Sequence record: OQ990039
Strand: one strand, 5' to 3'
DNA from: Escherichia phage SUT_E420
DNA length: 64,000 bases
Shown: positions 17,745-47,152 of the stretch, piece after piece
Position numbering within the stretch: the stretch's first letter is position 1
How the letters are laid out: each line of letters begins with the position of its first letter
Program-made: the position numbers and the translations under genes
The notes under the pieces: generated by a model
Seen by the model: the letters and a program-made list of their open reading frames with translations, nothing else
Database searches by the model: none
What the model was told of the DNA's origin: nothing

Positions 17745-20078
17745 TTATAATTGACAACCACCGGATGCACATCCAGCAGCAGCTTCTTCACCTGCACCTC
17801 CACCATTTGCAGTATTGAAGTTTGCATAGTAGAAAGTTTTCCACCCATACTTAACAGCAGTCATGAAATCACGAACTACTACTGGGCCAGGAATGATTTC
17901 ATTCTCAAACTTGGTGTAGTCATAGTACATATTCGTACTGATAGACTGACTGAAGAATTTCTGCATAGTTGCTACCCACTTGATCCACTCGATACGATCT
18001 ACATCATAAGCCAGTTTATAGCTCATTAACGTTTCCCAATCGGTTGCACCTGGAGCAATTGCAATTACTTTATTTACTGCACTACCCTTGATAGATACAA
18101 TCTTACGAGGTGGTTCGATAGAGTTAGTAACACCTAACAGAACAGAAGAACTTTCTCCCGGCATCTGAGCAGTCAGAACAGAGTTACGCATACCATATTT
18201 CAGAATATCTGCACGCAGAGACTCCCAATCCATTTCTAGACCTACGGATACCAGTTCATCAACAGTTTTCTTGTACGTGTCGATTACCAGAATTCCTTTA
18301 GATGGTTTAGTACGATCAAACCACTCACATGCACCCTGTTCTTTAGCTAGGCGTACAGAGGCTTTATGCAGGAAGTAAGACAGTTTTTCAGCCTCACGGT
18401 GAATCCAGTTACGAGCTTCAATACCTTCATAAGCCAGACCTTCTGCTGCCATTGCACCTGCTGCGTTCATCAGGCCAATACCAACATTACGACGTTTCTT
18501 AGCCGTATATTCCATAGTTGGGAACGGATAATCCTGAATTTCAATAATTGTATCAACGAATTTCAGAAGGATGTAGCAAGTTTTTTCCCACTCAGCCAGA
18601 GATTCCATGCGTCCAAGTACAACACCGCCTAAGTTACACAGAGATACTTCACCAATATCCTCCGGCTTCATTTGATCAAGTTGTTCTTTTGTTTTATACA
18701 GTTCCGTGATATGATGGAACGGGCGTGTAGGCTGAGTAATTTCAACACAAAGGTTTGTCATACGGATCGGATCAAGGAAGTTACCGTGACGATTAGATTC
18801 CCCGATGTGATGAGCATACATACGTCCTGTTTCCATTCGGATACGTAGCCAAGTATCTAGGATTTCTTTTGCAGAGACTTTAGGAGCTGCTGGAACTGTT
18901 TTTCCTTCGTGGTCGATCTTTGTAAGAGATGCCACACGTTTCTCCGCTGCCACGTAGATTTCTTCAAATTTAGCCTCGTCATCACTATAAAACGCTTCAT
19001 GAACTTCTGGAGCATAGAAGTATGACATTAGCGTAATATCTTCGTTTTTAAGATAACGTTTTAACAAAAGATTGTTAAAGCTCAGAGAATAGTCCATCTT
19101 ATCGATTTTATTCTCATCTGTAGCACGTTGTTGCTTAACCTGCATCAATTGAATGATTTCAGGGTCGAAGTACGTATAAGACACTGTGGCAGAACCACCA
19201 CGAGTTTGCTGAGTATTGGCCTTTACTGAGCGGTCAATGTGTCGATAATATGGCAGTTTTCCGGAATGCGGGAATGCCCCATTTCGCACCGGATCAGCAA
19301 TTGATCGGCTTTCAAGATGATACCCGATTCCCGCTCTGGCTGCGACCATTTTGAAGACGATGTGCTCGGCGGTGTCGATTGAATCCAACGTGTCAGTGGA
19401 ATCCACGAGGCAGCAACTAGCAAATCCACGGTCACTAGAGCGCAGACCAACCAGTGGCGGCGTAGGAATGTTGATTTTGTGGAGTGACATTGCGTTGTAG
19501 AGGTCGATTGCATCTAGAATTGTCCAGTTAGGTTGAGATAACATCGCCATTGCCATACCCATGTAGGCAAACTGCGGAGTTTCATAGATTTCACCAGTGG
19601 CTATGTTACGACGGGAATACTTATCAAAGAACTGTTTCAGCCCACCACTAGTAAAAAGACGGTCACGATCATGGTCGATAACCTGATTCAGAGCTTCAAA
19701 TTGCTCATCGGTAATCCATGCACTCATGTCTTCCCATGCACCTACGCTAACCATATGGTCATGGAAGAAGCGCAGAGAAGGTGGTTCGAAGGAATCATAG
19801 AGGCGTTTACGCATTTGCGCAAGACGTAATTCCTTTGCTGGCACATCATATGCTGGATTATCTTTGATAAGACTTTCAGCAGCTTTAATTAATGCATCCA
19901 TCAGAGTGTCGGAATCTACAACCCCTTTAGGCAGAGTTTTTTGAGCAGCCATAGTAATGGCTGACCAACTTACATCAACTGTTTTGCAACCATACTCCGC
20001 CCAACCATTGAGTTTTTCAGGAGCAAAGTCTTCTACAGTACCGTCACGTTTAATTACTTTTTCAATGCGATGGCTCAT
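17745..20078 (-). CDS. nrdA: ribonucleotide reductase large (alpha) subunit, class Ia
   Basis: Start set at the Met of MSHRIEKVIKRDGT (ATP-cone) with ribosome-binding site AAGGAAAG; the track start is 35 codons upstream; catalytic Cys and C-terminal CxxC tail (CASGGCQL) present. Confidence 0.9.
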   Translation of the reverse strand: MSHRIEKVIKRDGTVEDFAPEKLNGWAEYGCKTVDVSWSAITMAAQKTLPKGVVDSDTLMDALIKAAESLIKDNPAYDVPAKELRLAQMRKRLYDSFEPPSLRFFHDHMVSVGAWEDMSAWITDEQFEALNQVIDHDRDRLFTSGGLKQFFDKYSRRNIATGEIYETPQFAYMGMAMAMLSQPNWTILDAIDLYNAMSLHKINIPTPPLVGLRSSDRGFASCCLVDSTDTLDSIDTAEHIVFKMVAARAGIGYHLESRSIADPVRNGAFPHSGKLPYYRHIDRSVKANTQQTRGGSATVSYTYFDPEIIQLMQVKQQRATDENKIDKMDYSLSFNNLLLKRYLKNEDITLMSYFYAPEVHEAFYSDDEAKFEEIYVAAEKRVASLTKIDHEGKTVPAAPKVSAKEILDTWLRIRMETGRMYAHHIGESNRHGNFLDPIRMTNLCVEITQPTRPFHHITELYKTKEQLDQMKPEDIGEVSLCNLGGVVLGRMESLAEWEKTCYILLKFVDTIIEIQDYPFPTMEYTAKKRRNVGIGLMNAAGAMAAEGLAYEGIEARNWIHREAEKLSYFLHKASVRLAKEQGACEWFDRTKPSKGILVIDTYKKTVDELVSVGLEMDWESLRADILKYGMRNSVLTAQMPGESSSVLLGVTNSIEPPRKIVSIKGSAVNKVIAIAPGATDWETLMSYKLAYDVDRIEWIKWVATMQKFFSQSISTNMYYDYTKFENEIIPGPVVVRDFMTAVKYGWKTFYYANFNTANGGGAGEEAAAGCASGGCQL

Positions 20079-20220
20079 TTGGCTTTCCTTTTTATAGTTA
20101 TCAGGATTTAAGGAATATTCTACTTTATTATCGGTCATTAGGCAAATAAAATTTTCTGATAGAAAAGGCCCGAGTATTTTCATACCCAGGCCCTGTATAT
20201 TACCAGTCTAGCTTTTTAGC

Positions 20221-20442
20221 TTATTCAATTACTTTAGCTCTAGCTACTTCTTTTAATAGAATATCTATGGAGGTGCTCAGCTCGTTATAATTGAATGGTT
20301 TATTTGGATTTGAGGTTACAATTTTCCACGCTAGGGTTGTCTTAGGACTTTCTTCCCCTTCCTTACGTGTAATCATATTAGCAGCACTCAGTGAAGTACG
20401 ATGTATTTTAGTTTTACGGCTCAGATGAACGACGTTTCCCAT
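20221..20442 (-). CDS. hypothetical protein (about 74 aa; start corrected)
   Basis: Track ORF overlaps phoH; internal ATG at 20442 with GGAAGGTG upstream sits just after the phoH stop. Confidence 0.35.
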   Translation of the reverse strand: MGNVVHLSRKTKIHRTSLSAANMITRKEGEESPKTTLAWKIVTSNPNKPFNYNELSTSIDILLKEVARAKVIE

Positions 20443-20443
20443 A

Positions 20444-21205
20444 TTACACCTTCCCCATGTCTTTAAAAATATCATAGAATGCTTTAGACTCAACAGAACG
20501 AACGTTATCAATCAATTCGATCATTGAGAATGGGGCATTTTCGTATTTTTCATAGACTTCCATAAGGAGTGCTAGACCTGAGTCACCTTTAATGTCTTTC
20601 TGAGCTATATCTCCGCAGATAATTAAACGGCAGTCTTGTCCTACACGAGTTAGGAGACAAATCATTGCCTCAACGGAAATATTCTGAGCTTCATCGACAA
20701 TTACATAGGAGTTGTTGAAAGTTCTGCCACGAGCATGTTCGACAGCCAAAAATTTAATTTTCTGACGTTCGACATATCCTTTATACGCATGATCGCCGAT
20801 GGCCCATTTCATACCATCAGCTATTGGCTCCAACCAAGGCTCTAGCTTTTCCGCTAGATCACCAGGAAGCATACCAAGAGACTTACCTAGAGGTTCATTA
20901 GGACGTACGAGAATCACTTGCTCAATATCTGAGTGAATGTCTGCGAGTTCCTGAGCTGCAAGAACGGACGGAATAAAGGTTTTACCAGTACCTGGCTCAC
21001 CGATACCCACAGTCACTGTGTTGTTCTTGATCATATTGATATATGATTTTTGCTCGCGGTTTTTACCTACTAGGGATTTAGCAACTGGGTTAGCGTAATC
21101 ATTAGAAAAATCAGCCTGAATTACGTTATTCTCATATTTGTTGCCACGCTTTCTTGAACCATTACGGTTCTCTCTTTTTTGACGTGCTTTTCCCATAAAT
21201 AACAC
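20444..21205 (-). CDS. phoH: PhoH-like ATPase
   Basis: Walker A GEPGTGKT and Walker B-like VIVDEAQN. Confidence 0.8.
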   Translation of the reverse strand: MLFMGKARQKRENRNGSRKRGNKYENNVIQADFSNDYANPVAKSLVGKNREQKSYINMIKNNTVTVGIGEPGTGKTFIPSVLAAQELADIHSDIEQVILVRPNEPLGKSLGMLPGDLAEKLEPWLEPIADGMKWAIGDHAYKGYVERQKIKFLAVEHARGRTFNNSYVIVDEAQNISVEAMICLLTRVGQDCRLIICGDIAQKDIKGDSGLALLMEVYEKYENAPFSMIELIDNVRSVESKAFYDIFKDMGKV

Positions 21206-21269
21206 TCCTATAGTGTACTTCGCTAACAGAGGATCAACAAAAAGATCTTGTTTATCAACTTACAAATAT

Positions 21270-21298
21270 ATTATACCAATATATACAGTAAAAAGCAA
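21270..21298 (-). promoter_or_regulatory. sigma70-type early promoter (minus): -35 TTGCTT, 17-bp spacer, -10 TATAAT
   Basis: Plus strand ATTATA-N17-AAGCAA upstream of phoH. Confidence 0.7.
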
Positions 21299-21490
21299 CT
21301 ACAATTTTAAATAAGCCTATGATATTGCATTTAAATAAAAAATTTGCTTGCTTTTAACGTGAGATGTGTGATACTAGATAATCATTTTATATCGCGTGCA
21401 CGAGTGTGTGATTATACAATTTTTAATAGAGATTGGCAAATAAAATTTTTTGACTCAGATCATGTTACAGAACTTTATAGTAAAATATTG

Positions 21491-21519
21491 TTGACATCCG
21501 CCCTCGAATGAGTTATAAT
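21491..21519 (+). promoter_or_regulatory. consensus sigma70 promoter (plus): -35 TTGACA, 17-bp spacer, -10 TATAAT
   Basis: Perfect hexamers upstream of nrdD; start of the rightward block. Confidence 0.75.
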
Positions 21520-21548
21520 AGTAGTCTTAGTTAGAGAAGGAGAGTATA

Positions 21549-23423
21549 ATGAATCGCAATGAAGAACTAAAGTATAAAGAAATGCAGGCGTTAATTAGAA
21601 ACTGCAAAGAGATTATCGAAGGGTCAGCAGATGAAGAGCTGCTGTTTAATAATGCTAATAAACCCTCAGAACGTTTCCCTACACAAAGGGATATGCTTGC
21701 AGGTGAATTGAGTAAGTATCTGATTCTAGAAGAAATGCCAATTCAGATTCGAAATGCTCATATGATTGGGGATATTCATTTCCATGATGCTGATTATGCT
21801 GCATTAGGCATGACTAACTGTTGTCTGGTAGCTTTGGAAGATATGTTGAAGAATGGTATGAAGGTTGGTAATGCTGAAATTAGCACTCCAAACTCTATCA
21901 CTACTGCGGCGGCTATTACTGCTCAGATTATCACTCAGGTTAGCTCCCATCAGTATGGTGGTACTTCTGTAGACCGCCTTGATGAAGTATTAGCCCCTTA
22001 TGTTCGTAAATCATATGACAAAAATCATGCGTTTGCAAAACGTTGGACTAAGGATGAAGCCAAAGCATCCGTAATGGCTACGGAGATGACTGAAAAGGAA
22101 GTCTATGACGCTTGTCAGGGTTTAGAATATGAAATCAATACCATGTTCAACTCTAACGGTCAGAGTCCATTTATTACCTTTGGTTTTGGTCTAGGAACTT
22201 CTTGGGAAGCACGTCTAGTACAGAAAGCAATACTGAAAGTACGCATGGATGGTTTAGGTATCAATAAACGTACAGCTATCTTCCCGAAACTGGTATTTGT
22301 ACTTCGTGATGGTGTTAACATGAAACCAGGAGATGTTAATTATGACATCAAGAAGTTAGCTATGAAATGTACTGCTGAACGTATGTATCCAGATTATATC
22401 AGCTATGACAAAGTTGTAGAAGTTACTGGAGACTATAAAGTTTCTATGGGCTGTCGTTCATTCCTAGCTGCTACAGAAGATGGTGAAACTGCCGGTCGTA
22501 ATAACTTAGGTGTTGTTTCTGTAAACTTGCCTAGAATTGCTATCGAAGCTGAAGGAAATATTGACCTATTTTTTGATTTGCTTGAACTGCGTGTGGATAC
22601 AGCGTTAAAAGCATTGGAGTGGAGAGTTGATCGCTTAAAATACATCCAAGCTAAAGCTGCACCCATCCTCTATATGTCAGGAGCCTTTGGGTTACGCTTG
22701 GAGCCTGATGAATATGTATTCGATCATTTCTATAATCGTGCTTCTGTATCTCTAGGGTATATTGGCTGCCATGAAATGCTACAGTTCATGTTTGGCAAAG
22801 ATATAGACACAATGTCCGAGACCTGCATCAAGTTTGTTCAGCGTGTATTGCAGTACATGCGGGATAGAGTCGATCAGAAGAAGGAAGAAACTAAGTTAGG
22901 TTATAGCCTGTATGCTACACCATCAGAATCCCTATGTGATCGCTTTTGTCGTCTAGACCGTGAATATTTCCCGGAACATGAAGATATTCTGTCCAAAGGA
23001 TACTACACTAACTCTCACCACCTTGATGTGGAACGTAAAGTTGCTCCTAACGTGAAATTTGATTATGAATCTAACTTTACTCCGATTGCTTCTGGTGGGT
23101 GTATTTCCTACGTAGAATTACCGGATATGAAACGATTCCCAGATGCACTGGAATGGGTTATTAATTATGCTGCTAGTAAGGTTCATTACTTCGGTATTAA
23201 TACTCCAGTGGATTCTTGCGGTAAATGTGGATTCTTAGGTGAAACAATAGCATCCGAAGATGGATTTAAGTGCCCTATCTGTGGTAATCATGACCCCGAA
23301 ACTCTTGAAGTAACTCGTCGAGTTTGTGGGTATCTTGGAAATCCGGGTGCTCGTCCATTTAACCCCGGCAAACAGCACGAGGTGATGGGCAGAGTGAAAC
23401 ATCAGGATATTCGAGCTAAATAA
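21549..23423 (+). CDS. nrdD: anaerobic ribonucleoside-triphosphate reductase (class III)
   Basis: 624 aa; C-terminal glycyl-radical motif RVCGYLG preceded by Zn-ribbon cysteines (CGKCG...CPICGNH). Confidence 0.85.
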   Translation: MNRNEELKYKEMQALIRNCKEIIEGSADEELLFNNANKPSERFPTQRDMLAGELSKYLILEEMPIQIRNAHMIGDIHFHDADYAALGMTNCCLVALEDMLKNGMKVGNAEISTPNSITTAAAITAQIITQVSSHQYGGTSVDRLDEVLAPYVRKSYDKNHAFAKRWTKDEAKASVMATEMTEKEVYDACQGLEYEINTMFNSNGQSPFITFGFGLGTSWEARLVQKAILKVRMDGLGINKRTAIFPKLVFVLRDGVNMKPGDVNYDIKKLAMKCTAERMYPDYISYDKVVEVTGDYKVSMGCRSFLAATEDGETAGRNNLGVVSVNLPRIAIEAEGNIDLFFDLLELRVDTALKALEWRVDRLKYIQAKAAPILYMSGAFGLRLEPDEYVFDHFYNRASVSLGYIGCHEMLQFMFGKDIDTMSETCIKFVQRVLQYMRDRVDQKKEETKLGYSLYATPSESLCDRFCRLDREYFPEHEDILSKGYYTNSHHLDVERKVAPNVKFDYESNFTPIASGGCISYVELPDMKRFPDALEWVINYAASKVHYFGINTPVDSCGKCGFLGETIASEDGFKCPICGNHDPETLEVTRRVCGYLGNPGARPFNPGKQHEVMGRVKHQDIRAK

Positions 23424-23465
23424 GCTAATCAGCCGGGTTGCTAGTCGACCTGGCTTTTATTTTAT

Positions 23466-23494
23466 TTGCTTTCAGCCAAAAATTTATATATAAT
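23466..23494 (+). promoter_or_regulatory. sigma70-type early promoter (plus): -35 TTGCTT, 17-bp spacer, -10 TATAAT, with conserved leader
   Basis: Followed by TAGATTTATAAATTTGAGAGGAG, the shared early-leader element ending in the ribosome-binding site. Confidence 0.7.
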
Positions 23495-23522
23495 AGATTT
23501 ATAAATTTGAGAGGAGAAAGGT

Positions 23523-23903
23523 ATGGAATTAAAGCCCTATATAGTTGAGTCTACATGTGGTGGTTTCCATCTTGGCGTAGACGATCTTAGAGAAGCTATT
23601 TTTGCATCTACTGGAGATTATTCCCATCTAGAGGGTATTGGATATTCATCAATTATTGGTGATTGGGTAGAAACAAATCTAGATGTATCACCATATAACT
23701 CAGATTGCTTGTTTGACGAGGATGAGGATGAAATAAAGTATGATATTGAATTTGTTTATAATAGAGTATTAAAAGTATACCAACGTAATCCCGAGGGATA
23801 CGAAGATATTACTAAAGGTATTAAACAGTATCTTAAAGATGTATACTATAATTTTTCTGATGAAGACCTAGAAACAGTTGCAGTGGAGTTTAATAATGGC
23901 TAA
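23523..23903 (+). CDS. hypothetical acidic protein (126 aa)
   Basis: First gene of the overlapping-gene operon 23523-26423. Confidence 0.45.
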   Translation: MELKPYIVESTCGGFHLGVDDLREAIFASTGDYSHLEGIGYSSIIGDWVETNLDVSPYNSDCLFDEDEDEIKYDIEFVYNRVLKVYQRNPEGYEDITKGIKQYLKDVYYNFSDEDLETVAVEFNNG

Positions 23904-24102
23904 GAATGTAAAACATCTTAAATATCGCTTAATTTACAATGGACGTATGGAAACAGAAGACCTGGCCCAATTAGCTATTAATTCTAACGAGGTTACAGTG
24001 CGTGCGCTGGCAATTGAAAAGTTGCGTGCCTCTTATGAAAATCGTGTTATGGAACTAGAGGAGAAACTTTATGGCATTCTCGAAGCCGATGCTACCAGAT
24101 AA
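23896..24102 (+). CDS. hypothetical small protein (about 68 aa)
   Basis: Start taken at MAKNVK; overlaps both flanking genes. Confidence 0.35.
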   Translation: MAKNVKHLKYRLIYNGRMETEDLAQLAINSNEVTVRALAIEKLRASYENRVMELEEKLYGILEADATR

Positions 24103-24292
24103 GGGTTTAAACGCCGCTTTGGAAAACGCATTAATGCAGCACTGGGAAACTGGCTATAAGGATGGTGTTGAATCCTGCGCTACTATGCTAGAAGTTATTG
24201 CTAATACCTTAATGGAGAAAGGCAATAAAGAATTAGCTGAGCTATTAGACAGTATTGGGCAAAACTTCAGAGAACAGGTGAAAAATGCGTAG
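24071..24292 (+). CDS. hypothetical small protein (73 aa)
   Basis: Overlaps the upstream ORF and the Sir2-like start. Confidence 0.4.
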   Translation: MAFSKPMLPDKGLNAALENALMQHWETGYKDGVESCATMLEVIANTLMEKGNKELAELLDSIGQNFREQVKNA

Positions 24293-25100
24293 ATTAATTG
24301 TTATTAGCGGTGCAGGTTTGAGTGTTGAAAGTGGTGTACGAGCTTTTCGTACTGATACTGCTAGTGGTAAAGCATTGTGGGATGATTATGATCTAGAAGA
24401 AGTATGTAATATTCATGCCTTTCGTGGTAATTTTTATCATAAAACCCATATGTTTTACAACAAGCGTCGTGAAGAGCTAAAAACTGTTGAACCCAATCTT
24501 GCGCATTTGCGTATCGGTGAATGGTATAAACAATATCCAGGTCAAGTAGTAAACTTGACTACCAACGTTGATGACCTTATTGAGCGTTCTGGCGTTCCAC
24601 ATAATGACATTCTACACATTCATGGATATTTAAAAGAGGTTGTTGTAGCTGATAGCTACAATAGTAGCAATAAACGGATTATTGATGTAGGATACAATTC
24701 TATTGATCCAGATGATTATAAATGGGTTAAACCTAATGTAATCTTCTTTGGAGAGCATGCTCCAGCATATGCGGAGATGTACAATGTTTTTGATGGTATT
24801 ACCAGTCAAGATATGATCATTGTGGTTGGTTGCTCTAACCAAGTAATTAACTTCTACTGGGAATTATTTCCTGTTCTTAATTTGACTGCTGCCAAGCTAA
24901 TGGTTGTTAACTACTATGATAGTGCCCTAGCGGCGGAACCGAGCTATCAAGGTATGACTCGTAGTGAGATGTACCAGCTGGAAGAACGCGGTATCCCTTA
25001 CTGGGGTAAAGGTGCGGTAGATGCTTTCAGTGATCCTGATTTTATTGCTCGTGTAGAAGCTCATTTAGGGGGTAGACCTTATGTGTCAGGAAATAAGTAA
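24285..25100 (+). CDS. Sir2-family (sirtuin-like) NAD-binding protein (271 aa)
   Basis: GAGLSVESGVRAFR matches the Sir2 signature GAGISxxSGIPxFR; downstream TTNVDDLIERSG and HIHGYL parallel the catalytic-region motifs; no CxxC zinc module visible. Confidence 0.7.
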   Translation: MRRLIVISGAGLSVESGVRAFRTDTASGKALWDDYDLEEVCNIHAFRGNFYHKTHMFYNKRREELKTVEPNLAHLRIGEWYKQYPGQVVNLTTNVDDLIERSGVPHNDILHIHGYLKEVVVADSYNSSNKRIIDVGYNSIDPDDYKWVKPNVIFFGEHAPAYAEMYNVFDGITSQDMIIVVGCSNQVINFYWELFPVLNLTAAKLMVVNYYDSALAAEPSYQGMTRSEMYQLEERGIPYWGKGAVDAFSDPDFIARVEAHLGGRPYVSGNK

Positions 25101-25593
25101 TACTCCAATTATTTTTCTAGACATTGATGGGGTGCTCAATTCGAGCATCTCCCACTATCATGCACCTGATGATGAAAAGATTTTCTTTGGAAGTGATTGG
25201 GTTTTCAAACCGCTTCTCAAGGCTTTTCAGGACTTTATTCGTCCTTCTCCAATAATGATTGTTGGAGTATCATCTTGGTTCTCTGTCAGAAATGAGATGG
25301 AGAACGTTCAGATTATGACCGGATTAGGCCTTATCGATCGTTTTCTTGGTACAACGGATTTTACTGGTGGTGGATTATCTAGGGGTAATTCTGTTCTTCG
25401 CTTCGTTGAAAAGCATAAGCTCAAACATTGGTGTGTGCTTGATGATGCGGGTGCTATGATGTATCAGTATCCAACGGTTATAGTCAACGGTAGGACTGGT
25501 ATAAATCTTCAAGATTTAAAAGCTGTTAGCTATATGCTAGAATTTAGCCCAGATCTTGAAATGTGTAAATCCTTACAACAATTTAAGGTGTAA
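25081..25593 (+). CDS. HAD-superfamily hydrolase-like protein (170 aa)
   Basis: IIFLDIDGVLNS resembles HAD motif I (DxDG); later CVLDDAG may be motif IV; overlaps the Sir2 gene by 20 nt. Confidence 0.4.
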   Translation: MCQEISNTPIIFLDIDGVLNSSISHYHAPDDEKIFFGSDWVFKPLLKAFQDFIRPSPIMIVGVSSWFSVRNEMENVQIMTGLGLIDRFLGTTDFTGGGLSRGNSVLRFVEKHKLKHWCVLDDAGAMMYQYPTVIVNGRTGINLQDLKAVSYMLEFSPDLEMCKSLQQFKV

Positions 25594-25595
25594 AT

Positions 25596-26024
25596 ATGTT
25601 CAATAATGTATTCTCTAAAGAAGCTAACCCAATTTTGGTTAACTTTTGGCGTACTCTTCCAGCTAGCCTGTATAATGAGGCTATTAACTCTTTGAAAATA
25701 TGGTGTGAGAATAACGAAATCTACTTTGCTTTTAAAGATGATATTGATGAAGCCCCCTGTATTGGTTTAATTGTTCAGGTAGAGGAGGGTCTTGAAGAGA
25801 TTGTCGGCTGGAAAGAGTTAGATGAAATGGGCTTAGTTTTTGCGTTAAACTATAAGCTGTTTATGCCTGCTAAGCATCGCCTCGTTGTTAACTATAAAAC
25901 TAGTGAATCTCCTGGTTTTCAAGTTAATGAACGTTACGGTTGGTCTTACTCACCAGAAGAAGTGAATGATGGTATCCAAAAACTTCGCCGTTTCGGGTAT
26001 ATGATCCCAGGTTTAACTGCTTAA
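25596..26024 (+). CDS. hypothetical protein, paralog A (142 aa)
   Basis: Shares CIG...W.EL.EMGL..ALN..LF.P...Y.P....L.R.GY..PGL with the next ORF. Confidence 0.45.
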   Translation: MFNNVFSKEANPILVNFWRTLPASLYNEAINSLKIWCENNEIYFAFKDDIDEAPCIGLIVQVEEGLEEIVGWKELDEMGLVFALNYKLFMPAKHRLVVNYKTSESPGFQVNERYGWSYSPEEVNDGIQKLRRFGYMIPGLTA

Positions 26025-26033
26025 GGAGGCAGA

Positions 26034-26423
26034 ATGGAACAAGTATATTGGCGTCAGATTGACCCTAGTTTGGTGAAACGTGCGGAGAAGCTGCTACAAC
26101 GTTGGTTGGGGGTAAGACAAGCCTCCTTCACTTTTCCTGAGCAGCAAATAGATGATCCATGCATTGGCGTTTTCCTGTCTGGATACGCCAGGGAATGGGA
26201 ACTGGATTGGAATGAGTTGTCTGCTATGGGTTTAATTGTTGCCCTAAATTTCTCTTTGTTCCATCCACGTGGTTTTGCCATATGTCGTGTGCCGGATGAT
26301 GGTTGTTCGCCCCATCTTTTACAGGTGGAAAATGATATTTGGGAGTACACTCCAGATATTCTCAAAGAAGCTAAAGAACAATTAAACCGTGTTGGGATAT
26401 ATGTTCCGGGATTAAATGACTAA
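26034..26423 (+). CDS. hypothetical protein, paralog B (129 aa)
   Basis: Tandem paralog of 25596-26024; ribosome-binding site AAGGAGG. Confidence 0.45.
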   Translation: MEQVYWRQIDPSLVKRAEKLLQRWLGVRQASFTFPEQQIDDPCIGVFLSGYAREWELDWNELSAMGLIVALNFSLFHPRGFAICRVPDDGCSPHLLQVENDIWEYTPDILKEAKEQLNRVGIYVPGLND

Positions 26424-26449
26424 TGATTTTTATTAGCTGAACTCTGATT

Positions 26450-26475
26450 ACCGAGTCATTTTGGCTCGGTTTTAT
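26450..26475 (+). terminator. rho-independent terminator
   Basis: Stem ACCGAG/CTCGGT with 9-nt loop followed by TTTTA; ends the Sir2 operon. Confidence 0.5.
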
Positions 26476-26517
26476 CCGTACTCAAGACCAATGATAGCAC
26501 CATCCGGAAAATTTTAC

Positions 26518-26546
26518 TTGCAGGATGCTCAAAATCTTGATATAAT
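26518..26546 (+). promoter_or_regulatory. sigma70-type early promoter (plus): -35 TTGCAG, 17-bp spacer, -10 TATAAT
   Basis: Followed by the family leader ATTTATATTGAATTGAGAGA; about 500 nt of non-coding leader follow before the next gene. Confidence 0.6.
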
Positions 26547-27045
26547 ATTTATATTGAATTGAGAGATATTAGTAAAAATTGATTTTGCTAATTTTTCTTG
26601 TTTACAATCCGCGATACGGAACAGTTAGGCTGCCCAATTAAGGGTTGTTTTAACTGTTACGTGTTAGTTTTTAAACAAATAGTTAATAGAATACTTAGCG
26701 ATCTGCGTCCCGTAGGAACCCTGGTAAGGCCTCGAAGCAACCTAGATAGAGGTGGTTGTGAAGTGAGACGGGAGGAGTGAAAAACTCCGAGACGTGATTC
26801 TGTAAGTTATATTGCATCTAGTATGAGCTAGTACATGAAGCATTAGGTGAGCAAATCTGGCTTAGCGGCCATCCTCAAGGATTTGTGCGGTATAGCAAAG
26901 CAGCAGCGCAGCGTGAAAGTGGAAGTTGCCACCCCACTTCAGTATTTGCGATTAATTTGTTGAGAAATTGACAGTAACAGTTGTTCTATTCTTTCTGAAT
27001 AGTCCTAAAGAAAACTTATTTCATTTCCAACACAGGAGTATTGTT

Positions 27046-29460
27046 GTGTTCTCAATCCTACAAGGTCATGCAGGATTTCATCGCGATTTAGCCACAGGCA
27101 ATTGGCGAGAAGTTAAAGCAGAAGACTATCTTTTTGCTAAAAGATTTTCCTCAAAGCATCCTGAAGGTAAACCAGCTTCAATGCCCTTCAAGTTTGATGT
27201 AATTGATGAAGTTGATCCTCAAACCCTAGTAGAAATGCTTCCTCTTATGAGACGTTTAACGTCTGACCCTCATATCGTTGCGGTACGAGGTCGATGTCTT
27301 ACACCTAAAAATAATGTGCGACGTAAGAAGGGCAACTTTAATGTATCTAACCCAAGTCATATAATTGCAATGGACGTGGATGGTATTGTAGATACAGGTG
27401 GTTGCAACAAGTTTGATCTTGTTGGCATGGCTCGACATATTATTAGAATGTTAAATAGTATTAGTGAGGATATGTTTCCTCTTGATGCAGGGTTTATCGC
27501 TCATGCATCGTCTTCGGCTGGGCTNNNNNNNNNNNNNNNNNNNNNNNNNNNNNNNNNNNNNNNNNNNNNNNNNNNNNNNNNNNNNNNNNNNNNNNNNNNN
27601 NNNNNNNNNNNNNNNNNNNNNNNNATGTTAAATAGTATTAGTGAGGATATGTTTCCTCTTGATGCAGGGTTTATCGCTCATGCATCGTCTTCGGCTGGGC
27701 TAAAACCAGGTATCCGAATGCACTTAATACTAGAATCTAATGTTAAAGTAACTCAGGGTCAAATCAAATTCTTATTTACATCTATCAACGAAAGTAGTAG
27801 ACAAAAGTATGGCTTTGATATTGCCGACTTAGCTTATTACTCTTCCGTACAGCTCCACTATTTTGCAGATCCGTTATTTACCGATGGTATAGTAGATCCG
27901 TTTAAAGCGGAGGGTGCTTCACGTCTGGTATTTGTTAAGGGTTCTAAAGTAAATTTACCCAATAATCTGGTTGACTATGAAACAACTAGAGGTGAGTTTA
28001 AGGAGGAGTTTTACTCTTTACTCGATCAAATTAAAGGTAAAAAAGCTGCCTCTGATAAAGTAGAGGAAACTATCAGCGAACTAGAAGAAGCTGAGGATGG
28101 AGTGTATCTACGTATCATACCTAAACTCTATCACAGAGCCTTAGAGGATGGTGTTGATTTTGCATGGCTAGAAAAAGAAATCCGTCCAGCCTTATCAGAA
28201 TATATTGCAACTAAAGATAACAGTCGCAATATTCAAGATTACTTTAATAACGGTCGTAAACAGGCTCTGAAAGCATTTGTTAATAATTCTAAACGTGATA
28301 TACCTGATGTTTTAAAGGGTATTCCACTTAAAAAGCTAGAAACTAATTCTCTAGAAACTGATAACTTCTTGAAATTAAATACTGTACCACCAGAAGGTTA
28401 TATGACTTTTGTAAAAGCAAGTCTAGGTACAGGTAAAACTACAGCGGTTGTGCGTTGGTTAGATTCAGGAGTTATTAAAGGTAATTTCTTAGCAATTACC
28501 AATACTAGAGCACTGGTATCTTCAAATGCCAAGAAATTTAGTGCAGGACAATATGATAAGTCTGTAGATATGCTTAATTTTAAGCGGGGTGCTATTGACC
28601 GTATGTCCACAACTATTCACTCTTTGCATAAATTCAAGAGTTTTATTGGTCAAATTGATGCAATCTTTATCGATGAATGTGATGCAGTAATGAATGACCT
28701 ATTATTCGCCCCGGTTGTTAAACAACGTCGCGAGTGTATTCAGGTTCTTCGGGATATTCTTGCAACTGCAAAAATCATTATATTATCTGATGGGGATATT
28801 AGTGCAGAAACAATTGAAGCATATGGTTCTTTGATTGAGTTTGATAAACCAGTAGCATTTTATAACCATCACCGTAAAATGCTATCAAAAGCTCATGCTT
28901 ATGAGTTCCCGGATGAATCCAGTATTTGGGTTGCACTTCAGACTTCTCTAGAGATGGGTGAGAAATCTATCCTAGTATCTGACTGTGGGCCGGATGAACT
29001 GAATGAGAAGGGTATGGCATTGCGTCGTAATACGGGTGCGTTAGTTAAGGAAATCCACTCAAANNNNNNNNNNNNNNNNNNNNNNNNNNNNNNNNNNNNN
29101 NNNNNNNNNNNNNNNNNNNNNNNNNNNNNNNNNNNNNNNNNNNNNNNNNNNNNNNNNNNNNNNGATATTAAGAAGTGTTCAAATGTCACTATCAAACCAT
29201 TCATAGAAGCTCTGAAAGGTAAGAAGAAAGATTTCTTCCTTAAAACAGGTCAGAGTGCTAACCCAAAATATGCCAGAATGTATCTTGGTATGATGGGTAT
29301 TGGTAAGGATATGAACACTGAAAATATTGTAGACTGGTACAGAACCTATTGTAAAATCGAGTGTATGCCAATCCCCTATAAGTTTATGACTGATGAGGAG
29401 AAACATATGCATGATGAAGCAATGGCAGAGCTAGGTGCTAGAAATGACAGTGAAGAATAA
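27046..29460 (+). CDS. large P-loop ATPase/helicase-like replication protein, putative origin-binding protein (interrupted by two gaps)
   Basis: Walker A LGTGKTT and Walker B IFIDECD; start set at GTG 27046 with ribosome-binding site ACAGGAG; gap at 27525-27624 is a duplication artefact, gap at 29064-29163 hides real sequence. Confidence 0.5.
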   Translation: MFSILQGHAGFHRDLATGNWREVKAEDYLFAKRFSSKHPEGKPASMPFKFDVIDEVDPQTLVEMLPLMRRLTSDPHIVAVRGRCLTPKNNVRRKKGNFNVSNPSHIIAMDVDGIVDTGGCNKFDLVGMARHIIRMLNSISEDMFPLDAGFIAHASSSAGXXXXXXXXXXXXXXXXXXXXXXXXXXXXXXXXXXMLNSISEDMFPLDAGFIAHASSSAGLKPGIRMHLILESNVKVTQGQIKFLFTSINESSRQKYGFDIADLAYYSSVQLHYFADPLFTDGIVDPFKAEGASRLVFVKGSKVNLPNNLVDYETTRGEFKEEFYSLLDQIKGKKAASDKVEETISELEEAEDGVYLRIIPKLYHRALEDGVDFAWLEKEIRPALSEYIATKDNSRNIQDYFNNGRKQALKAFVNNSKRDIPDVLKGIPLKKLETNSLETDNFLKLNTVPPEGYMTFVKASLGTGKTTAVVRWLDSGVIKGNFLAITNTRALVSSNAKKFSAGQYDKSVDMLNFKRGAIDRMSTTIHSLHKFKSFIGQIDAIFIDECDAVMNDLLFAPVVKQRRECIQVLRDILATAKIIILSDGDISAETIEAYGSLIEFDKPVAFYNHHRKMLSKAHAYEFPDESSIWVALQTSLEMGEKSILVSDCGPDELNEKGMALRRNTGALVKEIHSXXXXXXXXXXXXXXXXXXXXXXXXXXXXXXXXXXDIKKCSNVTIKPFIEALKGKKKDFFLKTGQSANPKYARMYLGMMGIGKDMNTENIVDWYRTYCKIECMPIPYKFMTDEEKHMHDEAMAELGARNDSEE
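27525..27624. other. assembly gap (100 N) flanked by identical 77-bp copies
   Basis: 27448-27524 is identical to 27625-27701; adds 59 artefactual codons to the ORF. Confidence 0.85.
29064..29163. other. assembly gap (100 N) without flanking duplication
   Basis: Flanks differ, so the true missing length is unknown. Confidence 0.8.
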
Positions 29461-29677
29461 AAAATGGGAAACAAGGAAGTTTCCAGTAAAAGAACGTAAA
29501 GTTCCTGTTTACGACACTTCGGAAAAGCTATGTAGGGTGGTACCGCATAGATTAGCTGGCATCCCTAACATATCCGAGTGGTTACTTAAACAACGGAAAA
29601 CAAACGTGTCTCTTCGTATCGGCTTTGAATTAGATAAAGTCTATGCTGAACTTGCTTCTTTACTCAAGGAATCGTAA
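29435..29677 (+). CDS. hypothetical basic protein (80 aa)
   Basis: ORF overlapping the end of the upstream gene. Confidence 0.3.
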   Translation: MLEMTVKNKKWETRKFPVKERKVPVYDTSEKLCRVVPHRLAGIPNISEWLLKQRKTNVSLRIGFELDKVYAELASLLKES

Positions 29678-29685
29678 AAATTTAT

Positions 29686-29714
29686 TTGCATAGTGCAAAA
29701 AATTTCTGTATAAT
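29686..29714 (+). promoter_or_regulatory. T5 PN25-like early promoter (plus): -35 TTGCAT, 17-bp spacer, -10 TATAAT
   Basis: AAAAATTTATTTGCATAGTGCAAAAAATTTCTGTATAATAGATTCATAAATTTGAGAGAGGAGTTTAAATATG closely matches the classical T5 PN25 promoter and leader as recalled. Confidence 0.8.
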
Positions 29715-29745
29715 AGATTCATAAATTTGAGAGAGGAGTTTAAAT

Positions 29746-30450
29746 ATGGCTGGTTCTCGTAGAAAGAAACATATCCATGAAATCCCGGATGAAGTCTTTA
29801 AAAAGGTTATAGAGCATCTGGAGAACGGTGGTACCAAGAAAGCAGCATGTGAAATGCTCGGCGTATCATCCAATCCAACTATGGAAAGGATGATTGAAGA
29901 ATGGCAAGACCGCCAGATTCAAGTGGCTGAAATGAAGAAAAAGAAACGTGGCACACTCATTGAAGGCATTGAGTTAGCTAACGTTATTGAACAGTATTTG
30001 TCTGGTGATTCTTTTGAAGAAATTGCCGATCGTAATTACCGCTCTGTAGCAATGGTTAAATCTGTTCTGGAACGATATGGTGCTCTGCTTCGTTTGAATG
30101 ATATTGTAGATCCATTGAATCCTCCAATTATTCCTGATGATGCTGTAGCAGAAGAATTTGCAGTTGGTGAGCTTGTTTGGGTTCCTGGATACCAGTGTAT
30201 CGGTGAAATCAAAAAAGCAATGGATAACCCTGTTGGTTGTTACCGTGTATGGCTTCTATCAGAAGGCAAACAACAGAACGTTCATTATATGAATTACGAG
30301 CTGGCTTCTGTTAAACATCTGGAAAAGTTAGGGGTAGACGTAAAATCTCTAGGATATAAGTGGACTCGTGAAGAAATTATTACGTTGATTAACGAAGCTG
30401 TTAAGGCTGCCCTGAAACTTGATAAAGAAAAAGGAAAACGCCGTGAGTAA
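29746..30450 (+). CDS. early protein downstream of PN25, possible HTH DNA-binding protein (234 aa)
   Basis: N-terminus MAGSRRKKHIHEIPDE; helix-turn-helix-like KKAACEMLGVSSNPTMERMIEEW. Confidence 0.6.
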   Translation: MAGSRRKKHIHEIPDEVFKKVIEHLENGGTKKAACEMLGVSSNPTMERMIEEWQDRQIQVAEMKKKKRGTLIEGIELANVIEQYLSGDSFEEIADRNYRSVAMVKSVLERYGALLRLNDIVDPLNPPIIPDDAVAEEFAVGELVWVPGYQCIGEIKKAMDNPVGCYRVWLLSEGKQQNVHYMNYELASVKHLEKLGVDVKSLGYKWTREEIITLINEAVKAALKLDKEKGKRRE

Positions 30451-30694
30451 GCTAACAGATTTGCTTAAAGATGGGGAAGTAAAAACTCTATATCGTAGAA
30501 GCTGGGATAATGACAATAATGGCTTAGTGTTACTAACTTTAGACGCTGACTCAGATGTAGTTACCCAACATACCTGGGTAGCTGGTAATTATCCCTATAG
30601 TGAGGTTGTTACGTTAACAGTATGCGAAGCTATTGCTGACGATTGGGAGATTGCCAGCATTGATGATATGCTTGCTGTTGGCCTGGTGGAGTAA
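30419..30694 (+). CDS. hypothetical protein (91 aa)
   Basis: ORF overlapping the previous gene; an alternative GTG start at about 30446 is possible. Confidence 0.35.
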   Translation: MIKKKENAVSKLTDLLKDGEVKTLYRRSWDNDNNGLVLLTLDADSDVVTQHTWVAGNYPYSEVVTLTVCEAIADDWEIASIDDMLAVGLVE

Positions 30695-30711
30695 CTACAG
30701 AAAAATTTCAG

Positions 30712-30740
30712 TTGCTTAATCCTATAATTCTTGATATAAT
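30712..30740 (+). promoter_or_regulatory. sigma70-type early promoter (plus): -35 TTGCTT, 17-bp spacer, -10 TATAAT
   Basis: Consensus hexamers upstream of gene 30798. Confidence 0.65.
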
Positions 30741-30797
30741 ATTCTCATAGTTTGAAAGAACTATTCTGTTTAATTCTTAATTAAGGAAATATAAAAT

Positions 30798-31208
30798 ATG
30801 ACTACTCCAACTCAGTGGACTGATGAACTGTTCGAAAAAATGTCTTCCGAATACGTTGCTCGTATGGAGCAATTCCCAGAGGATGAACGTCCGGGTGTTA
30901 GCATGGAAATTGTTAGCGAAATTGCTCAGGAAAATGGTGTAACTCCGAACGGTTTTCGTATGAAGTTGACCAAAGCAGGTGTATATATCAAGAAAGCTGC
31001 TGGCTCTGCTTCTAAATCTAGTGCATCTACTGGAGAAAAAGCTTCTGGTGGTTCTCGCACTTCCAAAGCCCAAGCTCATGCCGATCTTCGTTCAGCATTC
31101 TCTGATGCTGGCCTAGCACCAGATTTTCTGGATGATGCAATTATCGACAAACTGACCGGTAAAGCGGCTGCTCATCTGGCAGAAGCAATCCGAGCTATCA
31201 CTAAGTAA
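30798..31208 (+). CDS. hypothetical protein with high-expression codon usage (136 aa)
   Basis: Strong bias to GCT/CGT/CTG/GGT codons; Ser/Ala-rich central linker. Confidence 0.5.
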   Translation: MTTPTQWTDELFEKMSSEYVARMEQFPEDERPGVSMEIVSEIAQENGVTPNGFRMKLTKAGVYIKKAAGSASKSSASTGEKASGGSRTSKAQAHADLRSAFSDAGLAPDFLDDAIIDKLTGKAAAHLAEAIRAITK

Positions 31209-31244
31209 TTTTTAGATAAATCCACCAACAAAAGGAACACAGTT

Positions 31245-31541
31245 ATGACCAAAGCTGAAATTATCGCACAATGTGAAAAATTTGGTGAGTTTTATCTTCA
31301 TTACGAGAAACTTCGTCAGAAAGGAACCACGTACCTTCAGGGTACGATGGAATTTGATCCAGCCCAAGATAAATATCTGGCTGAGCGTATTAAACGTGAA
31401 CGTATTCGTAAAGCGAAAGATGATGAGATCCTTGTCTTCTCTCGTACTAATGATAGCTTCCGTTTTATTCCTGTCGAGAAAGTCCGTCGTGTGACTAGCC
31501 TCCAATCAGAGTTAGATCGTGCTTCTCCAGTAGGCCGATAA
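31245..31541 (+). CDS. hypothetical protein (98 aa)
   Basis: ORF with ribosome-binding site AAAGGAA; followed by a terminator. Confidence 0.45.
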   Translation: MTKAEIIAQCEKFGEFYLHYEKLRQKGTTYLQGTMEFDPAQDKYLAERIKRERIRKAKDDEILVFSRTNDSFRFIPVEKVRRVTSLQSELDRASPVGR

Positions 31542-31550
31542 GAAACCAAT

Positions 31551-31575
31551 TAGCCCCTATATGGGGCTTTTTGTG
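31551..31575 (+). terminator. rho-independent terminator
   Basis: Stem AGCCCC/GGGGCT with loop TATAT followed by TTTTTG. Confidence 0.55.
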
Positions 31576-31591
31576 TATTTGGGATATGTAA

Positions 31592-31900
31592 ATGAGCGAA
31601 CAGGTAAATCAAAACTATGAAGGACACGTTGATGACCAGTCCATCATACTTTGGGAGAAGGAGGGGGAACAAGTAAGATTAACAGTATCTGAATTTCGTG
31701 GGAATCTATACATGGGTATTCGTTACTGGCTTCTTGATATTAATGATGAATGGTTTCCAACGAAATCTGGCTTCTCTTTTCCTTACACCCTAGAAACAAC
31801 ATCACAGCTTTTCTATGCGTTTACACAGATTCTTAGCGAATCTGAGGTTTTACATGAAGTACAGAAACGAGCTGAAGAACTCAAAGCCAAGAATGCCTAG
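31592..31900 (+). CDS. PC4-like ssDNA-binding protein (102 aa)
   Basis: VRLTVSEFRGNLYMGIRYWLLDINDEWFPTKSGFSF resembles the PC4/Sub1 C-terminal ssDNA-binding fold. Confidence 0.45.
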   Translation: MSEQVNQNYEGHVDDQSIILWEKEGEQVRLTVSEFRGNLYMGIRYWLLDINDEWFPTKSGFSFPYTLETTSQLFYAFTQILSESEVLHEVQKRAEELKAKNA

Positions 31901-31917
31901 TTCTTGGCTTTTTCTTT
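31884..31917 (+). terminator. rho-independent terminator (10-bp stem)
   Basis: AAGCCAAGAA/TTCTTGGCTT stem with 7-nt loop, followed by TTTCTTT; overlaps the stop codon of the PC4-like gene. Confidence 0.6.
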
Positions 31918-31927
31918 ATAAATGTAT

Positions 31928-31956
31928 TTGCTTTCAACTCAGTTTTGTTATATAAT
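31928..31956 (+). promoter_or_regulatory. sigma70-type early promoter (plus): -35 TTGCTT, 17-bp spacer, -10 TATAAT
   Basis: Followed by the family leader ATTTATATAAATTAATGAGAGGG. Confidence 0.7.
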
Positions 31957-31986
31957 ATTTATATAAATTAATGAGAGGGTTGCAAA

Positions 31987-32259
31987 GTGAAAAAGATAAG
32001 TATAAGTACACTTAAACCTTTCCCGTACATCGGACAGCCTCTTATACTTATGTGGGAGGGGAAGATTAATGGAGAAAAGTATACTAAAACTAGAAGTGGG
32101 TATAAGCTGATTTCACTTCATTACGAAAAAGAAGTATTAGTAGCTGAAATATACTCTCCGTTGTCAGATAGGCTAGTAAAAACTACATATTTGCATCTTT
32201 GCAAAAATTATACATGGCACGGATCCACTAGACAACCCACATACTATGAGGCAGAATAA
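31987..32259 (+). CDS. hypothetical protein (90 aa, GTG start)
   Basis: GTG start with ribosome-binding site GAGAGGG; directly upstream of the ligase N-terminal ORF. Confidence 0.4.
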   Translation: MKKISISTLKPFPYIGQPLILMWEGKINGEKYTKTRSGYKLISLHYEKEVLVAEIYSPLSDRLVKTTYLHLCKNYTWHGSTRQPTYYEAE

Positions 32260-42796: not shown

Positions 42797-42896
42797 NNNN
42801 NNNNNNNNNNNNNNNNNNNNNNNNNNNNNNNNNNNNNNNNNNNNNNNNNNNNNNNNNNNNNNNNNNNNNNNNNNNNNNNNNNNNNNNNNNNNNNNN
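42797..42896. other. assembly gap (100 N) flanked by identical 77-bp copies
   Basis: 42720-42796 is identical to 42897-42973. Confidence 0.85.
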
Positions 42897-42984: not shown

Positions 42985-44139
42985 ATGAGAATATTATTTA
43001 GTGCTGATCATCATATCAAACTAGGACAAGATAAAGTTCCAAAGGAATGGCAGAAGCGTCGCTTCCTGATGCTAGGAGAACGGTTAAATGATATATTCCA
43101 TAATCATAACTGTGATCTTCATATTGCTGGTGGTGATATACTTGATGTTGCCGACCCGTCGTCAGAAGAAATAGAACTGCTTGAACAGTTCATGTCAAGA
43201 CTTGACCATCCAGGCAAAATCTTTACTGGAAATCATGAAATGTTAACGAAAACCATTTCATGTCTATATCATTATGCAGGAGTTATTAATAAAGTAACGA
43301 GTGGTAAGTGGGAAGTAATTACCAAACCATATCGTTCCCCTGAATTTGATATTGTTCCATATGACGAAATCCATAAATCTAAGTGGAAACCATCTGAATC
43401 AAAACTATGTTTCACGCATGTTCGTGGTGAAATCCCTCCACATGTAAAACCAGANNNNNNNNNNNNNNNNNNNNNNNNNNNNNNNNNNNNNNNNNNNNNN
43501 NNNNNNNNNNNNNNNNNNNNNNNNNNNNNNNNNNNNNNNNNNNNNNNNNNNNNNTCTAAGTGGAAACCATCTGAATCAAAACTATGTTTCACGCATGTTC
43601 GTGGTGAAATCCCTCCACATGTAAAACCAGAAATTGATCTAACTAAGTACAACTGTTATGATACTGTAATTGCTGGCGATTTACATTCTTATACTAATAG
43701 CCAGACTATCGGATCTACTAGACTCCTCTACCCAGGGTCTCCATTAACTACATCGTTCCATAGAGAACGCACAAAAGGTACAAATGGTTGCTTTATCGTT
43801 GATACCGACACATTAAAAGTAGAATGGATTGAACTCGGTGATTTACCACAACTGATTCGTAAAACAATCGGAGCTGGTGAAGAGATGGAACCTAGTGATT
43901 ATGATCGTGTAGTCTATGAAGTTACTGGTGACGTTGTTCAATTAAAGTCTATCAAAGACTCTGATTTATTAGATAAGAAGATTAACCATCGAGTTACTAA
44001 AGACGCTAAGTTAAATCTTGTTGATCTTGATATGTTAGGCGAACTTGAACTTTACTTCCGTGAAGTTGAGAAGCTATCTCAAGGCGACATTGATAGAATC
44101 TTGGCTAGAGCTGCGAAATATGTCAAAGATTACAATTAA
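42985..44139 (+). CDS. SbcD/Mre11-like nuclease (T5 D12-like)
   Basis: Calcineurin-like phosphoesterase motifs (ILFSADHH, GGDILD, FTGNHE); ORF contains the duplication artefact at 43455-43554. Confidence 0.75.
   Translation: MRILFSADHHIKLGQDKVPKEWQKRRFLMLGERLNDIFHNHNCDLHIAGGDILDVADPSSEEIELLEQFMSRLDHPGKIFTGNHEMLTKTISCLYHYAGVINKVTSGKWEVITKPYRSPEFDIVPYDEIHKSKWKPSESKLCFTHVRGEIPPHVKPXXXXXXXXXXXXXXXXXXXXXXXXXXXXXXXXXXSKWKPSESKLCFTHVRGEIPPHVKPEIDLTKYNCYDTVIAGDLHSYTNSQTIGSTRLLYPGSPLTTSFHRERTKGTNGCFIVDTDTLKVEWIELGDLPQLIRKTIGAGEEMEPSDYDRVVYEVTGDVVQLKSIKDSDLLDKKINHRVTKDAKLNLVDLDMLGELELYFREVEKLSQGDIDRILARAAKYVKDYN
43455..43554. other. assembly gap (100 N) flanked by identical 77-bp copies
   Basis: 43378-43454 is identical to 43555-43631. 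Confidence 0.85.
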
Positions 44140-46492: not shown

Positions 46493-47152
46493 ATGGCTGT
46501 AGATAGTAGAGAGAAAGGTAAACGTGGTGAATATCAGGTAAGAGATATTCTACGTGAGCGTACAGGTCTTGAGTGGGAACGTGTTCCTGGCTCTGGTGCT
46601 TTTGGCCAGAGCCACGGACTGAAAGGTGACATCTACCTTCCACCACAAAGCGGACACATTAGTAAATACTGCTTCGAAGTTAAGTGGTANNNNNNNNNNN
46701 NNNNNNNNNNNNNNNNNNNNNNNNNNNNNNNNNNNNNNNNNNNNNNNNNNNNNNNNNNNNNNNNNNNNNNNNNNNNNNNNNNNNNNNNNCACGGACTGAA
46801 AGGTGACATCTACCTTCCACCACAAAGCGGACACATTAGTAAATACTGCTTCGAAGTTAAGTGGTATAAAGATGATAATATATCAAGTAATTTATTTAAT
46901 GTTGGTGAATCCACTCTAGAGAAGTGGTGGCAGCAGTGCTCACGTGAAGGTGAGCAGATGAACTCCAAACCTGCATTAATATTCAAAAAAGACAGAGGAC
47001 AGTGGTTAATAGCTTTGGATAGCTCAGACCCAATGGTTGACAACTTAATGAGTCGTACCCATATGGTGTTAAATAAGAAAGACATGGAAATCGTAATTGG
47101 TTTATTTGAACCGTGGCTACATCATGCATCTGTTGAGGACTTAATTAAATAA
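46493..47152 (+). CDS. PD-(D/E)xK-type nuclease-like protein (T5 D14-like)
   Basis: GDIY...FEVKW resembles a PD-(D/E)xK core; contains one duplication artefact (true length about 160 aa). Confidence 0.45.
   Translation: MAVDSREKGKRGEYQVRDILRERTGLEWERVPGSGAFGQSHGLKGDIYLPPQSGHISKYCFEVKWXXXXXXXXXXXXXXXXXXXXXXXXXXXXXXXXXXHGLKGDIYLPPQSGHISKYCFEVKWYKDDNISSNLFNVGESTLEKWWQQCSREGEQMNSKPALIFKKDRGQWLIALDSSDPMVDNLMSRTHMVLNKKDMEIVIGLFEPWLHHASVEDLIK
46690..46789. other. assembly gap (100 N) flanked by identical 77-bp copies
   Basis: 46613-46689 is identical to 46790-46866. Confidence 0.85.

Follow-up and report, generated by a model that had tools for sequence, protein, structure and literature searches.

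A gene pair at the end of an early transcription unit

The DNA analysed here is a window of 64,000 nucleotides from Escherichia phage SUT_E420 (sequence record OQ990039), a T5-like phage of the genus Tequintavirus, and the subject of the analysis is a pair of adjacent open reading frames (ORFs) at 25596-26423, termed ORF1 and ORF2. As the window is from a T5-like phage the pair can be equated with T5.106 and T5.107, both of which are labelled 'hypothetical protein' in the T5 record; ORF1 is 92% identical to T5.106 and ORF2 is 95% identical to T5.107. Orthologues of the two genes occur in hundreds of phage records, and bases 24000-26800 show 100% identity to Escherichia phages SUT_E1520 and SUT_E520 and 96-97% identity to many others. 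The genes and their family are already catalogued and the window brings no new variant. The account developed below is of two old paralogues, each probably built from two copies of one small domain, of which a single copy has kept the motif that is typical of the family, with a tentative role in nucleotide supply or replication. The features of the pair are as follows.

25596-26024, + strand: ORF1, 142 amino acids, T5.106 orthologue and position-1 paralogue; units of the Pfam domain DUF7415 at residues 15-65 (E=1.4e-20 against the DUF7415 model) and about 70-113 (E=9.6e-15), then a C-terminal helix and a G..IPGL tail
26022-26036, + strand: ORF1/ORF2 junction, TAAGGAGGcagaATG, with the ORF1 stop codon embedded in the Shine-Dalgarno sequence of ORF2
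26034-26423, + strand: ORF2, 129 amino acids, T5.107 orthologue and position-2 paralogue; DUF7415 units at residues 3-50 (E=5e-16) and about 57-98 (E=1.6e-14)
26450-26476, + strand: Rho-independent terminator-like hairpin, ACCGAGUCA-UUU-UGGCUCGGU then UUUUAU, closing the transcription unit

An earlier note on this DNA, made from the sequence alone, had described two adjacent ORFs of 142 and 129 amino acids as an old tandem duplication at the end of a Sir2 operon. The two ORFs are indeed present and share one reading frame on the + strand. The pairwise alignment that the note had proposed as a check (BLASTP, a single comparison) gave 38/124 identities (31%) with one gap and E=6e-19, a similarity well beyond chance. 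The shared core motifs had been described roughly correctly, but with two residues and a spacing in error: the strings actually common to both proteins are PCIG ... W.EL..MGL..ALN..LF.P and Y.P(9 residues)L.R.G...PGL, the 'E' preceding MGL and the 'GY' being found in ORF1 only and the spacing from P to L being 9 residues rather than 4.

The tandem duplication is borne out, and its age can be set further back. On neighbour-joining, a single clade (bootstrap 86) holds the position-1 copies of T5-likes, Epseptimavirus, Sugarlandvirus and two metagenomic lineages, and those of position 2 group in other clades (bootstrap 100 and 94). The duplication is older than the split of several Demerecviridae genera. 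The ratio of non-synonymous to synonymous substitution (dN/dS) against Lindwurm and T5, where dS was unsaturated, was 0.05-0.09 for both genes, similar to that of the adjacent Sir2 and HAD genes; both paralogues are kept under purifying selection and are real coding genes. The junction between them takes the form TAAGGAGG-N5-ATG in T5-likes and that of a 4-nt ATGA overlap in three divergent lineages, and these signals, the stop codon lying within the Shine-Dalgarno sequence in the one case and the start and stop overlapping in the other, suggest that the translation of ORF1 and ORF2 is coupled.

The assignment of the pair to the end of the Sir2 operon agrees with the sequence. The ORFs across 23523-26423 abut or overlap in the order small ORFs, Sir2, HAD, ORF1, ORF2, and they are flanked by a terminator-like hairpin 3' of nrdD at 23431-23455 and by the hairpin and U-run at 26450-26476, which begins 27 nt past the ORF2 stop (-13.2 kcal/mol, z=-2.5); terminators are annotated at the equivalent sites in T5 and Lindwurm. 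ORF1 and ORF2 are the co-transcribed last genes of an early unit that begins after nrdD, and their place is the early region for nucleotide metabolism and replication, with nrdD/Sir2 on one side and the gene for the origin-binding protein on the other.

Family, motif and predicted fold

The earlier note had recognised no known family, a statement that has to be revised as both proteins belong to Pfam DUF7415 (PF24187) and to PHROG 2502, neither of them a family with a known function. Against the Pfam model, for which the curated gathering cut-off is 27 bits, the scores are 125.1 bits for ORF1 and 109.6 bits for ORF2, each protein giving two matched stretches, and the 134-position profile of phrog_2502 is covered from 2 to 134 by residues 11-142 of ORF1 (E=1.5e-62) and from 4 to 134 by residues 1-129 of ORF2 (E=1.4e-61). 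The relationship to PF24187, PHROG 2502 and T5.106-T5.107 is thus one of direct membership, with no difference to record. DUF7415 is without a solved structure or an assigned function. A scan of NCBIfam with ORF1 and ORF2 gave nothing meaningful, PDB sequence searches with the proteins gave no match, and DUF7415, phrog_2502 and T5.106/T5.107 are named in the main text of no paper that was found; the HIDEN-SEQ study includes no T5-like phage. The PADLOC defence-protein models gave chance-level matches only for ORF1 (E=0.045-0.057) and no match for nine canonical DUF7415 proteins, and the weak matches to 'PDC-S02' were dismissed as chance.

When the halves of the two proteins were scanned separately against the 53-position DUF7415 model, each half matched almost end to end, with 54-74 bits, and each protein probably contains the same small domain of ~50 residues, a helix plus a beta-hairpin, in two copies. 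Compared with the single-domain members of the family, the second units gave an hhalign probability of 99.8% and the first units one of just 26% (pairwise E=7e-4). An exhaustive profile search yielded 158 DUF7415 representatives, most of which consist only of the core that matches the second unit; four large proteins with cadherin/Ig repeats that the same search brought up (P0054, P0091, P0123 and P0177) were set aside as spurious repeat or composition matches. The consensus of the single-domain proteins is IDWN.LS.LGLI.RIN.EILHPLGLA..R.PETG.S.G.LV..DG.WEY, in which the Asn is invariant, the His-Pro, the Gly and the Gly-x-Ser are nearly invariant (90% or more) and the Arg and the Trp-Glu-Tyr are consensus positions.

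The canonical polar motif, N..LFHP.G...R...G.SP, which hardly varies among the hundreds of stand-alone single-domain members of the family, is kept solely in the second unit of ORF2 (LNFSLFHPRGFAICR..DGCSP...WEY). In the second unit of ORF1 a Met replaces the His and the Gly is gone (LFMPAKHR), and the first units of both proteins are without the motif. All position-1 copies lack the His-Pro/Gly, which position-2 and single-copy genes retain, and a gene pair with a degenerate first and a canonical second member is also found in Sugarlandvirus, in Epseptimavirus and in two metagenomic Demerecviridae lineages; the canonical motif is retained in the two single-gene lineages L003 and L005. This asymmetry is systematic and of long standing. 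ORF2 has in its second unit, in common with stand-alone DUF7415 proteins and with the P2-like Orf91 of Yersinia phage L-413C, the motif WNELS.MGL...LN...FHP.G.A..R....G.SP; the T5-type proteins are set apart from these by an additional first unit that is degenerate, by the C-terminal helix with the PGL tail after it, and by their occurrence as two diverged paralogues. The two-domain homologues are strongly acidic, with an isoelectric point (pI) of 4.05-4.95 in 36/36, which argues against nucleic-acid binding.

Confident, compact AlphaFold models were obtained, with a mean predicted local distance difference test score (pLDDT) of 87.8 and a predicted template modelling score (pTM) of 0.82 for ORF1 and of 96.1 and 0.89 for ORF2. 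Both consist of a short strand, a helix and a beta-hairpin, twice over, followed by a C-terminal helix, so that the order of secondary-structure elements is identical. Structure prediction had also been proposed in the earlier note as a check for a shared fold, and here the answer was positive: superposition of the ORF1 model on the structure predicted for the ORF2 orthologue from phage mar003J3 gave template modelling (TM) scores of 0.84/0.91 and a root-mean-square deviation of 1.5 Å, and the paralogues therefore share a fold. A search of predicted viral structures matched other DUF7415 proteins only, and a search of solved structures with both models revealed no resemblance to any. The anti-CRISPR protein AcrIC4 (PDB 8dfo_M) was entered among the closest known systems.

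Members of the pair bear the label 'tail tube protein' in the GenBank records of phiP4, HMD-7, JLBYU43 and others, and in some records the label 'Phage exonuclease (ACLAME 70)'. It is extremely improbable that these labels are right and that the pair encodes virion components of the tail tube or exonucleases; only the annotation strings speak for it. The models do not show the tail-tube fold and are unlike any solved structure, no tail family was matched, and the genes lie in the early region and not in the late morphogenesis module. As for an exonuclease, searches of Pfam, NCBIfam and PHROGs with matches allowed up to E=1 brought up no nuclease family, and there was no PDB sequence match. Both labels are misleading and are spreading in phage records, and they are corrected here.

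Genomic contexts, fitness data and possible function

Within the Demerecviridae the DUF7415 gene or genes end a unit downstream of nrdD, usually directly after Sir2, an adjacency that holds for most but not all of those examined; the HAD gene is variably placed or absent and nrdD or Sir2 is missing in some lineages. L005 is without nrdD and HAD, and L006 has nrdD and DUF7415 without Sir2 and HAD. The family is not confined to these phages. In Klebsiella T4-likes a 77-amino-acid single-domain DUF7415 gene lies exactly between nrdD and nrdG, and in Aeromonas phage PX29, also T4-like, a DUF7415 gene comes after rnlA and lies about 2 kb downstream of a HAD_SAK_2 homologue. In enterobacterial P2-like prophages and in L-413C DUF7415 makes up the C-terminal half of Orf91, a fusion with a PUA-like DUF3850 that is encoded directly after the replication gene A; Orf91 of P2 itself (L069, NC_001895 30316-30645) has the DUF3850 part only, and in Aeromonas P2-likes DUF3850 and DUF7415 are separate genes, two apart. 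Further fusions join DUF7415 to a PF04447 dATP/dGTP pyrophosphohydrolase and to a thymidylate kinase. The N-terminal part of another protein (L057) looks MazG-like by eye, Pfam giving no match for that part.

The neighbourhood in the window invites the idea that ORF1 and ORF2 are carriers, targets or regulators of the adjacent Sir2 and HAD enzymes, with Sir2 modifying or de-modifying them, much as SirTM acts on GcvH-L in its operon. The order Sir2-then-DUF7415 is indeed kept across divergent Demerecviridae, even in lineages without HAD at that position, and the proximity of a HAD_SAK_2 homologue in PX29 points the same way. Synteny inside one virus family is, however, weak evidence, L006 has kept nrdD and DUF7415 without either enzyme, and P2-like phages, Klebsiella T4-likes and 49 loci from IMG/VR carry DUF7415 without Sir2 or HAD, so that such a partnership is regarded as improbable. 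An obligatory link to NrdD, Sir2 or HAD is ruled out by the 49 IMG/VR loci together with L005 and L006.

Some indication of which paralogue matters comes from a published transcriptome-wide CRISPRi-ART knock-down screen of T5, in which T5.107 (score -2.90, listed statistic 0.0215) was one of 17 genes called 'Fit', T5.106 being 'Not Fit' (-3.28; 0.167) (PMC11879866, supplementary files 1 and 16). The effect on fitness is weak, but it runs parallel to the difference in sequence: the gene that matters is the one whose protein has the motif intact.

Taken as a whole, the explanation favoured here is given a probability of about 0.55, a figure that blends a description that is near certain with a mechanism that is uncertain. 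According to this mechanism the T5.106- and T5.107-type proteins would be made in matched amounts and would assemble into a hetero-oligomer, in which ORF2 would supply the one functional binding surface and ORF1 would be a degenerate structural partner; the heteromer is proposed because of the coupled translation signals and the asymmetric loss of the motif. The complex would be a strongly acidic, non-catalytic binding module of the early nucleotide-supply/replication programme, binding a conserved partner that might be a nucleotide-metabolism or replication protein or a nucleotide-like ligand, and it would take no part in nucleic-acid binding or virion building. This specific mechanism is put forward tentatively, as a possibility rather than a probability. 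Support for the nucleotide role from context and fusions is suggestive: the site between nrdD and nrdG, the position downstream of nrdD, the fusions to PF04447 and thymidylate kinase, and Orf91 after gene A.

A number of considerations weigh against the mechanism. The claim of two units per protein depends on the Pfam model together with the recurring strand-helix-hairpin pattern, as a comparison of first with second units by their own profiles was not significant (hmmsearch E of at least 0.06; hhalign probability 5-15%). The fitness call for T5.107 is borderline, and the origin-binding protein T5.108 was 'Not Fit' in that screen (PMC11879866). Fusions are rare: the best 120 of 806 profile matches are nearly all stand-alone proteins of 71-104 amino acids, with three longer ones (117, 139 and 170), and they contain no Pfam domain besides DUF7415; of the family members the great majority are stand-alone proteins 70-85 amino acids long. 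NrdD, Sir2 or HAD was found near DUF7415 in 0/49 of the IMG/VR loci, and elsewhere the domain is encoded in a P2-like tail operon, with gpU and gpD, both tail genes, on either side (L029, 5980-6177), or beside a portal gene (L056). With contexts so mixed, the association with nucleotide metabolism may merely mirror where accessory genes accumulate; the link of DUF7415 to nucleotide metabolism or replication is suggestive but not established.

The tail-operon site in L029 is odd, the gene being elsewhere one of early regions; phiCTX has in a similar position a single-domain DUF7415 ORF of about 65 amino acids that is apparently without annotation (Y13918.1, 7527-7709). The presence of DUF7415 within P2-like tail operons might explain some of the 'tail' labels.

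A further difficulty is that polar residues so strongly conserved (Asn, His, Arg, Ser, Glu, Tyr) could also belong to a catalytic site or to one for a small ligand. DUF7415 might be an ACT- or ATP-cone-like allosteric sensor of a nucleotide- or NAD-derived ligand, its site formed by the conserved Asn/His-Pro/Arg/Gly-x-Ser/Trp-Glu-Tyr residues, of which the T5 heteromer would keep one live copy, and its targets being the fused or adjacent enzymes (NrdD/NrdG, thymidylate kinase, nucleoside triphosphate pyrophosphatases and possibly Sir2/HAD). The predicted models bear some likeness to ferredoxin-like and ACT-type alpha+beta regulatory domains, with helices on an antiparallel sheet of repeated helix-hairpin units, and DUF7415 is, as such domains are, sometimes fused to metabolic enzymes; against this, those domains have no significant structural or sequence match to the DUF7415 models. 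A sensor is rated as rather unlikely. A somewhat smaller chance is allowed to a different role for a small acidic early protein, namely that of an inhibitor or counter-defence factor directed at the host, where it would neutralise either an immune protein or a conserved enzyme, such as one that depletes nucleotides. A parallel exists in T7, whose gp1.2 neutralises dGTPase.

The binding module proposed above for the T5 pair can also be generalised to the family. DUF7415 would then be an unrecognised fold and a widespread phage module that docks on or senses a conserved component of nucleotide supply or replication, such as the anaerobic ribonucleotide reductase system or a host nucleotide-degrading enzyme, and in T5-likes it would have become an obligate heteromer in which one unit is live and the other three are degenerate, the live T5.107 being needed for full fitness. 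So broad a statement is speculative and is more probably wrong than right.

That T5 should contain a conserved pair with no assigned function will not surprise a specialist. The pair is nonetheless a conserved early 'dark matter' locus of a model phage, and its domain is widespread, has no structural relative and offers a clear experimental entry point. Testable handles are provided by the four-unit architecture with its single intact motif, by the ancient pair with its signs of translational coupling, by a confident model without a known structural relative, by the recurrent, non-universal proximity or fusion to nucleotide-metabolism and replication proteins and by the borderline fitness effect seen for T5.107 only.

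Neighbouring genes and minor observations

The remaining genes of the transcription unit, all of them upstream of the pair, are the following.

23523-24292, + strand: three small ORFs (126, 74 and 73 amino acids), function not known, which open the transcription unit after the nrdD terminator
24285-25100, + strand: Sir2-family protein (T5.102), in the same transcription unit as ORF1/ORF2
25081-25593, + strand: HAD_SAK_2 phosphatase-like protein (T5.105), its stop 2 nt upstream of the ORF1 ATG

The T5 RefSeq record and phrog_18062 call T5.105 'Sir2 (NAD-dependent deacetylase)', a label that was probably carried over from the neighbouring gene as T5.105 is without a Sir2 domain. NrdD, the anaerobic ribonucleotide reductase, is encoded at 21549-23423, and no radical-SAM activase NrdG was evident among the ORFs listed for 18000-32000; T5-likes may use the host activase for NrdD. 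With nrdD nearby and an R.G[YI] tail at the C-terminus of the proteins, a GrcA-like glycyl-radical 'spare part' was considered and rejected: there was no match to PF01228, BLASTP against the NrdD of the window found nothing at the NrdD C-terminus and the Gly of the tail is not conserved across the family. In L003, a divergent member of the Demerecviridae with one DUF7415 gene, the position-2 slot (6390-6650) is occupied by an unrelated 86-amino-acid ORF with no Pfam match.

Downstream of the pair a 540-nt non-coding gap (26424-26967), in which a tRNA search found none and in which T5 has an annotated promoter, separates the terminator from the gene for the origin-binding protein. The window also contains twelve runs of exactly 100 N, at 5911-6010, 27525-27624, 29064-29163, 38551-38650, 42797-42896, 43455-43554, 44192-44291, 44824-44923, 45694-45793, 46690-46789, 47262-47361 and 54082-54181. 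Ten of the twelve are flanked by a direct duplication of ~77 nt, which looks as though a scaffolder had joined contigs without merging their k=77 overlaps, and the runs artificially break genes and duplicate parts of them, as in the origin-binding protein ORF at 26968-29460.
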